64,000 nucleotides of DNA, taken from an uncultured cyanobacterium. GTDB taxonomy: Bacteria > Cyanobacteriota > Cyanobacteriia > Cyanobacteriales > CAWCAG01. The translations under genes and the position numbers were made by a program. Positions 21,038 through 22,216 of the stretch are shown here, piece after piece. The notes beneath the pieces are model-generated. The model saw only the letters and a list, made by a program, of their open reading frames with translations. It was not told where the DNA came from and did no database searches. The stretch lies in the NCBI GenBank assembly GCA_963793425.1, contig CAWCAG010000005.1, forward strand, positions 832,001 through 896,000, written 5' to 3'. The number at the start of each line of letters is the position of its first letter. The first letter of the stretch is position 1.

Positions 21038-21186
21038 TCCCGCGTCCTAACCTCTTAAGCTTACATACTTTTTCGTTTGCGGAACGGAAGGTCACAGGTT
21101 CGAGTCCTGTCATTCCCGCTTAAAATGGGGATGTAGCTCAGTGGTAGAGCGTCAGTATCATAAAAGCTTAATTGACTTGCGCGGGA
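21038..21186 (+). ncRNA. Y-RNA-like unit 1: carrier stem + complete circularly permuted tRNA (anticodon GCG)
   Basis: TCCCGCG/CGCGGGA terminal stem; anticodon arm TTCGT-TTGCGGA-ACGGA; T arm ACAGG-TTCGAGT-CCTGT; closed acceptor CATTCCC/GGGGATG; D arm GCTC-AGTGGTA-GAGC. Confidence 0.85.
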
Positions 21187-21222
21187 CAACCTTTAAATTC
21201 TTGCTCCTGTTAAAAACAAGTA

Positions 21223-21344
21223 CTTCGCGCCCTAACTTAAAAAGCTTACATACTAGCTCAATTAGTAGAGCGCTTGACTCAAGATCAAGAAGTTGCAGGT
21301 GCGATTCCTGCGTATACTCAACAGCTTTTTTAACTTGCGCGAGG
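21223..21344 (+). ncRNA. Y-RNA-like unit 2: carrier stem replacing the acceptor stem of a D/anticodon(CAA)/T tRNA body
   Basis: CTTCGCGC/GCGCGAGG stem; D arm GCTC-AATTAGTA-GAGC; CTTGA-CTCAAGA-TCAAG; T arm GCAGG-TGCGATT-CCTGC. Confidence 0.85.
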
Positions 21345-21365
21345 TCACTTTTTTCCTCAATTTTT

Positions 21366-21511
21366 ACCGCGTCCCAATTTGCAAAGCTTACATACTATAT
21401 TAATCCATCGGTCGTAGGTGCAAATCCTACCATCTCCGTTGCCAATGGAGATGTAGCTCAGTTAGTAGAGCAGTGGAATGTATCTGAAATAGCTTTGCTA
21501 ACTTACGCGGT
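21366..21511 (+). ncRNA. Y-RNA-like unit 3: YrlA-type permuted tRNA opened in the anticodon loop
   Basis: ACCGCGT/ACGCGGT stem; TCCAT/GTGGA anticodon stem; T arm GTAGG-TGCAAAT-CCTAC; closed acceptor CATCTCC/GGAGATG; D arm GCTC-AGTTAGTA-GAGC. Confidence 0.85.
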
Positions 21512-21537
21512 TTGATTTTAAACAAAAATAAAATTAC

Positions 21538-21686
21538 TTCCGTATCCTCATCTAAAAAGCTTACACACTAAGGAATCTGTTATCTGGAAAGATACGTGGG
21601 TTCAAATCCCACCAACCCCGTGGTTGTGGCGGAGTGGTTAAACGCGATAGATATTGTGAAATACAGCTTTTTTAACTTGTACGGAA
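21538..21686 (+). ncRNA. Y-RNA-like unit 4: permuted class II (Ser/Leu-like) tRNA with variable arm
   Basis: TTCCGTAT/GTACGGAA stem; TCTGT/ATAGA anticodon stem; variable arm TATCT-GGAA-AGATA; T arm GTGGG-TTCAAAT-CCCAC; CAACC/GGTTG acceptor; D region GGCGGAGTGGTTAAACGCG. Confidence 0.85.
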
Positions 21687-21713
21687 ATTCTTAACCCTAT
21701 AGGGAGGGCATCT

Positions 21714-22100
21714 ATGTCTACAACAACTTTACAAGTTCTTGAACAACTGCAAACCTTTGCTTTCCAAGAAACACAGGAATTAGTAAAGCAAATCGAAGCA
21801 GCTTTTAATGTAGATGTTTCCTCCCAAGTAACCTTTGCCTATTCCCTTGATCCAATTAACTTAACTGGGGAGGATTCTGAAAAGCCAATGGAATTTGATG
21901 TAGTTTTAGAACAAGTCCCTGCTCAAAATAAGATTGCCATCATTAAAGCGTTGCGAAGTCTGACAGGACTGAGTTTGCGAGAATCTAAACAGATGGTTGA
22001 TTCTGCTCCTACAACCATCAATCAGTCAGTGGATCTCCAAATAGCTGAGGCAACGAAAATTCAATTAGAAGCAGTTGGTGCAACAGTTGCTTTGAAATAA
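21714..22100 (+). CDS. Divergent ribosomal protein L7/L12 paralog
   Basis: ELVKQIEAAF N-domain, EFDVVLEQVP..KIAIIKALRSLTGLSLRESKQMVDSAP C-domain; no rplJ next to it; Ala-rich hinge replaced. Confidence 0.9.
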   Translation: MSTTTLQVLEQLQTFAFQETQELVKQIEAAFNVDVSSQVTFAYSLDPINLTGEDSEKPMEFDVVLEQVPAQNKIAIIKALRSLTGLSLRESKQMVDSAPTTINQSVDLQIAEATKIQLEAVGATVALK

Positions 22101-22142
22101 GTAATTTGTTTTCGACTCACAAATGGTAAAATGGTAGCTGTC

Positions 22143-22216
22143 GCCGCGTCCCAACCGAGAGAGCATACATACTTCCCTGTCACGGAATACAAACAAGCTT
22201 TCTTAACTTGCGCGGC
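22143..22216 (+). ncRNA. Y-RNA-like unit 5: carrier stem + bare Asp-type anticodon hairpin
   Basis: GCCGCGT/GCGCGGC stem, GAGAGAGCATACATAC..AAGCTTTCTTAACTT scaffold, cargo TTCC-CTGTCAC-GGAA (anticodon GTC). Confidence 0.75.

Follow-up and report, generated by a model that had tools for sequence, protein, structure and literature searches.

Y RNAs are modular molecules in which a stem that binds the Ro60 protein is joined to an effector module, often one shaped like a tRNA (Chen et al. 2014, PMC4201824; Wang et al. 2018 preprint). In bacteria, YrlA and YrlB RNAs accompany the Ro60 ortholog Rsr, as in the rsr-yrlBA-rtcBA locus of Salmonella and in Mycobacterium, and were reported from 254 bacteria and 22 phages (Chen et al. 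2014, PMC4201824). Here we describe five RNA units from an uncultured cyanobacterium, found in a window of 64,000 nucleotides (the whole stretch of DNA that we analyzed, from contig CAWCAG010000005.1). They lie between positions 21038 and 22216, upstream of a gene at 22274..23716. We consider it quite likely that they form an operon of Y-RNA-type RNAs, each made of a Ro-binding handle and an effector module, beside a divergent Ro60/Rsr protein.

The tRNA-like part of YrlA runs from the T arm through a closed acceptor hairpin to the D arm, and the Ro-binding stem takes the place of the anticodon stem (Chen et al. 2014; Wang et al. 2018). A motif near the 5' end, GNCGAAN0-1G, is the proposed contact with Rsr (Chen et al. 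2014, PMC4201824). In Salmonella the Y RNAs are cut out of the rsr operon transcript (Hughes 2020), and it was suggested that YrlA may inhibit an anticodon nuclease (Hughes et al. 2020). Like the loci of YrlA and YrlB, where several RNAs per locus are common, ours has small RNAs encoded on the strand of a Ro60 ortholog and no more than a few kb from it. The distance from the five units to the start of the Ro60-like gene is 58 to 1236 nt, which is inside the limit used for YrlA (at most 4 kb from a Ro60 ortholog, same strand), the ortholog here being a divergent one. Units 1, 3 and 4 also share with YrlA an end stem beside a T arm/closed acceptor hairpin/D arm module, whereas unit 2 has the normal tRNA order and unit 5 has no such module. 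In this respect unit 5 is like the short YrlB of Salmonella, which is without a tRNA-like part. In contrast to YrlA, different letters are conserved in the handle and its junction is UACAUAC, its putative partner is not detected by the Pfam TROVE family, and the locus has five RNAs with protein genes set between them.

Canonical cyanobacterial Ro60 proteins of 533-535 aa are encoded beside YrlA, and their RNAs start with GGYCGAA-type motifs (Chen et al. 2014 supplements). These loci and ours come from the same phylum and have a tRNA-like RNA just upstream of the Ro gene, but the protein in the window belongs to a different family. The Yrn1-Rsr-PNPase system of Deinococcus radiodurans is the mechanistic model, in that a stem binds Ro and the second module serves to tether an effector or to gate the cavity (Chen 2014; Wang 2018). 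Yrn1 is drawn there with an anticodon-like arm, as we find in unit 2, although the sequences are unrelated. Animal Y RNAs are modular too. A reading of the window made without database searches (hereafter the sequence-only reading) had likened the strings GTCCTAA and TTGACT in unit 1 to the Ro-binding helix of Y RNA. Both strings are there, and with them the GUCC.A/UGACU likeness, but compared with the bulged helix of animal Y RNAs the conserved letters of the handle lie in an internal loop. The same reading proposed a constant carrier that presents exchangeable cargo. This design is indeed present, but the concept is not new, because modular Y RNAs are described in the Wang et al. 2018 preprint, and its comparison with repeat/spacer arrays is an analogy only.

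All five units (unit 1, 21038..21186; unit 2, 21222..21345; unit 3, 21366..21511; unit 4, 21538..21686; unit 5, 22143..22216) are on the + strand where they had been placed from the sequence, with unit 2 pairing one base further on each side. They share a handle consisting of an outer stem of 7-9 pairs, an internal loop, an inner helix and a junction, followed by a variable insert of 96, 69, 95, 96 and 24 nt in units 1 to 5. The internal loop has conserved letters on both strands, CCYNAY on the 5' side and RACUU on the 3' side, and the inner helix of 7-8 pairs ends in AAGCU/AGCUU, with a one-base shift in unit 5. The junction reads UACAUAC, and its AUAC pairs with a downstream GUAU. In unit 4 the junction is UACACAC and the partner is compensated, with CACA pairing to UGUG. 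Single-sequence folding recovered the outer stem, internal loop, inner helix and cargo for each of the five units. The z-scores of these folds are -2.58, -1.97, -5.01, -1.68 and -3.77 for units 1 to 5, so we count the single-sequence energies as modest evidence.

Covariation in the terminal stems and inner helices had been claimed from the window, where it is real but weak, since the stems of different units resemble each other and also pair in trans. With a fixed register, 35/35 positions of the 7-bp outer stems and of the 7-bp inner helices pair in cis, and in trans the outer stems still pair at 113/140 positions (81%) and the inner helices at 100/140 (71%). An example of compensation within the window is unit 4, with two compensated pairs. 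Among orthologs, the covariation is strong. We aligned 24 orthologs of unit 2 without structural guidance and scored a model of six helices, namely the outer stem, the inner helix, the 5-bp acceptor-like helix, and the D, anticodon-like and T arms. All six helices covary: the 39 pairs of this model are 96.4% paired and 23 of them are doubly changed; none of 500 shuffles reached any of the measures, and slid registers pair at 34-52%. For the permuted units (n=7), 32 pairs are 95.9% paired and 15 are doubly changed, again with 0/500 shuffles. The units for these ortholog alignments were selected by a finder demanding at least 6 consecutive pairs in both handle helices, so the figures for those two helices are biased; the cargo helices are unbiased, and they covary too.

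To search with the handle we used a covariance model, R1, made from nine short units (unit 5 and eight orthologs). It matches all five units, with 65.4 bits for unit 5, 46.6 for unit 1, 45.7 for unit 2, 41.2 for unit 4 and 37.6 for unit 3 (E from 6e-13 to 2e-6), and at E<=1 it has no further match on either strand of the window. The sequence-only reading had proposed a covariance model as a check, and R1 returns exactly these five units in 64 kb.

The gene that follows unit 5 (22274..23716, +) encodes a 480-aa protein that had been noted as a vWA protein linked to the units. Single-sequence searches reveal little about it: there is no match to TROVE (PF05731) in Pfam at E<=10, a sub-threshold match to VWA_2 being the sole Pfam result, and there is no NCBIfam family and no phmmer match in the PDB. 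Close relatives are many, and those with names are cyanobacterial proteins called 'vWA domain-containing' or 'hypothetical'. We scanned 1.84 billion representatives with HMMER and built a profile from 65 of the 952 relatives that this gave at E<=0.001, the most distant of the 952 being about 30% identical. Against the PDB, this profile matches human Ro60 (8.3e-18), Xenopus Ro60 (1.5e-14), Thermus-phage Ro60 (1e-14, query positions 23-393) and D. radiodurans Rsr (1.4e-8). The AlphaFold (AF2) model of the protein, a helical-repeat ring with a vWA domain, has a pLDDT (predicted local distance difference test) of 93.2. In Foldseek the best 11 matches listed are all Ro60/Rsr/TROVE chains (TM 0.62-0.68 over 482-526 columns), and isolated vWA domains rank far behind them. 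In the alignment of the 65 members, residues D303, S305, S307 and D389 of the metal ion-dependent adhesion site (MIDAS) do not vary, and at least 90% of the sequences keep T365. Among the same 65 members, 16 match Pfam vWA_Ro60, and TROVE is not among the families matched at E<=0.01. Because the profile, the model, the fold matches and the MIDAS all agree, we conclude that the 'vWA protein' has the Ro60 fold and went unlabelled by domain searches.

The genome of the window, which is 98.6% complete, has no TROVE match. Of five genomes with the 480-aa family, two have a canonical TROVE gene elsewhere, and in a BLASTP comparison the 480-aa protein is not significantly similar to the canonical 534-aa protein of a co-carrying genome (E 0.6). 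Based on this co-occurrence and the lack of BLASTP similarity, we regard the two as separate, anciently diverged and coexisting families. Upstream of the canonical gene in two genomes there is a tRNA-model match of 119-122 nt. R1 run with filters off had no match near the two canonical loci, but this mode also missed known units with long cargo and so cannot show absence. A Ro-like protein (61-68% identical) together with the handle was also seen in L004, a locus labelled Chthonomonadaceae, and in the GC-rich metagenome loci L042, L090, L100 and L104. These carriers, which do not look cyanobacterial, suggest either transfer between phyla or binning errors.

The handle and the protein occur together across genomes. 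The 480-aa family is present in 33/301 genomes sampled over the cyanobacterial phylum; a related-locus search of genome contigs gave 2 true loci, and a genome-wide search was used instead. We fetched 31 loci holding the protein, and R1 at E<=0.01 gives 69 matches in 28 of them, all 69 upstream of the Ro-like gene and on its strand as read from the coordinates. The three loci without an R1 match were covered with flanks of only 1.5 kb; for two of these loci, exact handle words stand just past the flank. The exact handle pattern was detected in 30/33 genomes with the protein and in 28/268 without it, counts that include related, non-independent genomes and carry no statistic. In the genomes without the protein the matches are mostly single, long-spacer ones of another kind, and a reversed control pattern matched about 13 genomes. 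A viral scan with a narrow query, the 16-nt junction word, gave 5 exact matches, none with a handle by R1. The covarying handle is the constant part, and the cargo differs between units within the window, as the sequence-only reading had it, and also between genomes.

The cargo of units 1, 3 and 4 is a tRNA-like module in circularly permuted order, with an extra hairpin, the T arm, a closed acceptor hairpin and the D arm. The D arm of unit 4 resembles that of long-arm tRNAs. A comparison with Rfam had been proposed. The YrlA model (RF02553) matches unit 3 end to end (36.5 bits, E 6.9e-6, model positions 1-114) and the core of unit 1 (34.3 bits, E 3.1e-5), in both cases within the T arm, closed acceptor hairpin and D arm and far below the gathering score; units 2, 4 and 5 have no YrlA match at E<=10, and the Y_RNA model (RF00019) has none at E<=10 in 20600-22400. 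Unit 5 has a hairpin of 4 bp alone as its cargo.

In unit 2, the module has the normal tRNA order, with a 5-bp acceptor-like helix followed by D, anticodon-like and T arms. At 21250-21315 it matches the Rfam tRNA model with 50.5 bits, compared to a gathering score of 29, but at model positions 4-67 only, and ARAGORN calls a tRNA-Leu(CAA) at 21247-21319. A tRNA has a seven-pair acceptor with free ends, whereas the acceptor-like helix here has five pairs and runs on into the helices of the handle. Bacterial tRNA-Leu has a long variable arm, and the variable region of unit 2 is 5 nt. The 7-nt 'anticodon' loop varies freely across orthologs, and a normal 83-nt tRNA-Leu(CAA) is encoded elsewhere in the genome, at G000:C9. 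Unit 2 is a tRNA mimic mounted by its acceptor end. Among the tRNA-like modules, the second position of the T loop and the D loop occur as U/GG in 30 cases, as G/AG in 4 (3 independent) and as another combination in 1; a G in the T loop always comes with AG in the D loop, as in units 2 and 3 and one ortholog. This covariation is what would be expected if the elbow forms, and supports a real tRNA elbow.

We think it extremely improbable that the units are a functionless remnant, either a decaying array of tRNA genes or a tRNA-derived repeat whose flanks are repeated too. The tRNA called in unit 2 by both ARAGORN and Rfam would fit such an origin, and three to five extra tRNA-model matches are found upstream of the handle arrays in two related loci (L033:152-706 and L019:3640-3969 (-)). 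However, three of the modules are permuted and their closed acceptor hairpins covary, the acceptor-like helix of unit 2 is continuous with the handle, and the genome has its normal tRNA-Leu(CAA). Moreover, the handle is compensated in genomes whose Ro-like proteins are 67-74% identical to that of the window, and the same handle carries cargo other than tRNA. A second Rfam tRNA match over the gathering score, at 21447-21620 (+), was rejected as an artefact, because its parts come from different units, the D arm from unit 3 and the T arm from unit 4, with a 66-nt insert between them. An annotation pipeline might report it as an intron-bearing tRNA.

The cargo other than tRNA was found beyond the window. 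A sixth handle in the same genome, at about G000:C9:705447-705656 (+), which is L037:3947-4156, has an insert of 170 nt. This insert contains a 12-nt exact copy of the sarcin-ricin loop of the genome's own 23S rRNA and a 37-nt copy, 94.6% identical, of 23S positions 1091-1127, which we take to be the H43/H44 GTPase-associated centre. The Rfam large subunit (LSU) rRNA model gives 61 bits for this second segment, at model positions 1080-1157. The leaders of ribosomal-protein mRNAs are known to copy such hairpins, the L10 leader being a copy of the 23S GTPase-centre hairpins that is bound by L10/L11. In contrast to the L10 leader, the copy here is on a Ro handle together with a copy of the sarcin-ricin loop and is not before rplJ. 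R1 with default filters did not find this unit at E<=1. Its lone fold is no better than shuffles, and the case for it rests on the alignment of such units.

In metagenome contigs, a scan found 119 stretches that have the handle junction with the loop word after it. We fetched 80 of these, and 61 have an upstream handle motif, while the other 19 are unrelated matches. An alignment of rRNA-mimic units (n=33) shows 97.5% pairing and double changes in 18/43 pairs under a structure that RNAalifold derived from the very alignment then scored; pairs of the handle and of the closing stem of the rRNA-like junction are among those doubly changed. The junction pattern was seen in 8/10 further genomes with the protein and in 0/5 without it. 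In some genomes it is 1-1.2 kb downstream of the Ro-like gene, and three metagenome units directly follow the C-terminus of the Ro-like gene. Units at L007:904-1083, L008:3346-3529 (-) and L011:3732-4067 (-) carry a copy of 23S positions 1853-1878, presumably the H69-H71 region, of 21-26 nt and 90-92% identity. A further conserved class of cargo, 64-93 nt long, occurs at L019:3045-3188 (-), L023:1295-1444, L033:1310-1439 and L011:3124-3237 (-), with no match to an Rfam family or to 23S rRNA. None of the non-tRNA cargo in 11 related loci matches an Rfam family at E<=0.1.

The surroundings of some of these units raise the question of whether the handle serves a protein other than Ro60. It could be a binding or processing site for the 66-aa protein encoded upstream of unit 1, for a tRNA-binding RNA ligase or for an RNase, with the Ro60-like gene being co-regulated, but we think this unlikely. 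The 66-aa open reading frame (ORF) at 20817..21017 (+) is linked as tightly as Ro, in that tblastn detects it upstream of the arrays in 15 of 31 Ro loci, at full length in 13 and partially in 2. Neither Pfam nor NCBIfam has a family for it, but its alignment has 80% mean column identity, and the N-terminus and a C-terminal RPEAVYG are invariant in 14 orthologs. Its AF2 model (pLDDT 91.5) has a beta-beta-alpha-beta-beta arrangement with beta-grasp-like topology; Foldseek finds nothing for it at E<=0.001, the weak top rows being ubiquitin-like domains. A predicted complex of the Ro60-like and 66-aa proteins scored 0.00, which counts neither way. The sixth unit of the window's genome is far from Ro, and the gene that follows it at a distance of 147 nt encodes tRNA_bind and RNA_ligase domains; Macro and NADAR genes are nearby. 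Against this, the handle is upstream of Ro in 28/31 loci compared to 15/31 for the small ORF (the latter partly from 1.5-kb flanks). The RNA ligase gene adjoins 1/80 of the fetched metagenome units, so it is not a general partner. Ro60 proteins are also the known partners of exactly such an RNA design (Chen 2014; Wang 2018).

Between units 4 and 5 there is an ORF of 128 aa (21714..22100, +) that encodes a paralog of ribosomal protein L7/L12, with matches to Pfam Ribosomal_L12 (4.1e-22) and TIGR00855 (99.8 bits, compared to a cut-off of 84.4). The housekeeping L12 gene at G000:C5:794157-794549 scores better, and its product is 43% identical to the paralog. A second copy of L12 was found in 7/33 genomes with the Ro-like protein and in 2/268 without it, and in four genomes it is beside the Ro-like gene. 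We considered an exclusive link between the L12 paralog and the rRNA-mimic units and rejected it: in a small sample, the junction pattern is present in 5/5 genomes with a second L12 but also in 3/5 Ro-like-positive genomes that do not have one.

The positions of units 4 and 5 relative to genes could mean that the units are cis-acting leaders or intercistronic elements that set the stability, processing or translation of the mRNAs for the L7/L12 paralog and the Ro60-like protein. Between unit 4 and the start of the L12 paralog there are 27 nt, and unit 5 ends about 57 nt before the start codon of the Ro60-like gene, where its orthologs are always found too, ending about 55-60 nt upstream. Nor did a pattern scan detect an internal promoter or terminator in the operon. 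We nevertheless judge this very unlikely as an explanation of the units, considering that units 1-3 precede other units and not ORFs, that there are copies without a closely following ORF (such as the handle downstream of Ro in L027), and that a leader has no need of a tRNA-like elbow kept by tertiary covariation. In addition, the Y RNAs of Salmonella are likewise cut from the rsr operon transcript (Hughes 2020).

The region is probably one operon, transcribed as a single unit in the order 66-aa ORF, four RNAs, L7/L12 paralog, fifth short RNA and Ro60-like gene. A promoter-like site (TTGACA, 18 nt, TAGTAT) at 20721..20750 (+) matches the consensus at 10 of 12 positions and is the sole + strand candidate at that level upstream of the operon. 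The scan found 4 such sites compared to 5.8 expected in shuffles, so the promoter match is weak evidence. A terminator-like hairpin with a T run at 23724..23748 (+), 8 nt past the stop codon of the Ro60-like gene, is the sole + strand candidate within 20500-24000 and likewise a match to a pattern only.

Several neighboring genes were noted. A C-5 cytosine DNA methylase gene (window 19391-20641, -) is divergent from the operon, and beyond it are an 852-aa ORF with an Hsp70-like stretch and a WD40 beta-propeller (16735-19293, -) and a 6S RNA (15072-15254, -; Rfam 90.6 bits). On the other side, an ORF for a MazF-like endoribonuclease (23818-24159, -; NCBIfam 118.9 bits compared to a cut-off of 120) is tail to tail with the Ro-like gene, and the small ORF that overlaps it and lies upstream of it (24153-24392, -) is probably its antitoxin. 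The MazF-like ORF has no tblastn match in any of the 31 related loci, so we take its adjacency to be chance.

A number of observations weigh against a set of Y-RNA-type RNAs that bind the Ro60-like protein. The GNCGAA motif of YrlA does not occur on the + strand in 21001-22230. The YrlA scores of units 1 and 3 do not reach the Rfam gathering score of 69 bits, and could come from tRNA-likeness alone. The fold z-scores are weak for units 2 and 4, and the rRNA-mimic unit of the same genome, with a z-score of -0.47, does not fold better than shuffles. That unit also shows that the handle can be found away from the Ro gene, and handle-like matches are present in three genomes (G032, G083 and G284) where the Ro-like protein was not found, as would also be expected if the handle served another protein. 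Finally, neither the promoter nor the terminator pattern is more common than in shuffles. We have allowed for these points in calling the Y-RNA-type operon likely; it continues to be the reading that we prefer.

In such an operon, the constant module would be a candidate binding site for the Ro60-like ring, corresponding in role to the conserved helix in animal Y RNAs and the GNCGAA stem in bacterial YrlA. The variable module would be an RNA mimic, tRNA-shaped in units 1, 3 and 4 (permuted) and unit 2 (non-permuted), or a hairpin in unit 5. RNAs bound by Ro may then tether factors that bind tRNA or the ribosome to Ro60, or gate its cavity, and this tethering or gating could serve RNA surveillance, decay or repair. 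Alternatively, the RNAs may soak up enzymes that attack tRNA or rRNA. We lean towards such a function, that is tethering, gating or acting as a decoy in tRNA/rRNA surveillance, in line with the D. radiodurans system and with the proposal by Hughes et al. 2020 that YrlA may inhibit an anticodon nuclease. For unit 5, its position in the 5' leader of the Ro60-like gene suggests an added role, in which the protein would exert feedback on its own mRNA.

The association of Ro60 with modular Y RNAs that mimic tRNA is known. As far as our searches reach, the protein family, the handle, the acceptor-mounted tRNA mimic, the rRNA-mimic modules and the L7/L12 paralog are new. A literature search gave no paper linking the sarcin-ricin loop to Ro60 or Y RNA, the survey of Burroughs and Aravind 2016 not being covered, and no paper with the handle motif in the context of Ro60 or Y RNA, one supplement of Chen 2014 not being covered. 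The role of bacterial Ro60 and Y RNAs is still open, and this locus adds to it a second Ro60 family that was missed by domain searches and has its own handle motif, which can be used for finding RNAs. One handle with differing modules amounts to a natural experiment.

More tentatively, the RNAs of this Ro60 paralog could be a set of baits that jointly copy the working surfaces of translation, with tRNAs in two topologies, the sarcin-ricin loop together with the stalk base, and H69-H71; we hold this to be possible but doubtful. Such a set would attract the ribonucleases and toxins by which tRNA or rRNA is cut and would then either block them or report them, or else it would hold translation GTPases and repair enzymes at Ro60. 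It would bring the L10/L11/L7-L12 stalk base and the sarcin-ricin loop of 23S rRNA together on one RNA, and in some genomes the L7/L12 paralog could build a miniature factor-binding site on the rRNA mimic. If the rRNA-mimic modules are confirmed, they would point to the factor-binding site of the ribosome as the target of the system, and if the set of RNAs does act as bait, bacterial Ro60 would be directly linked to ribosome and tRNA damage.

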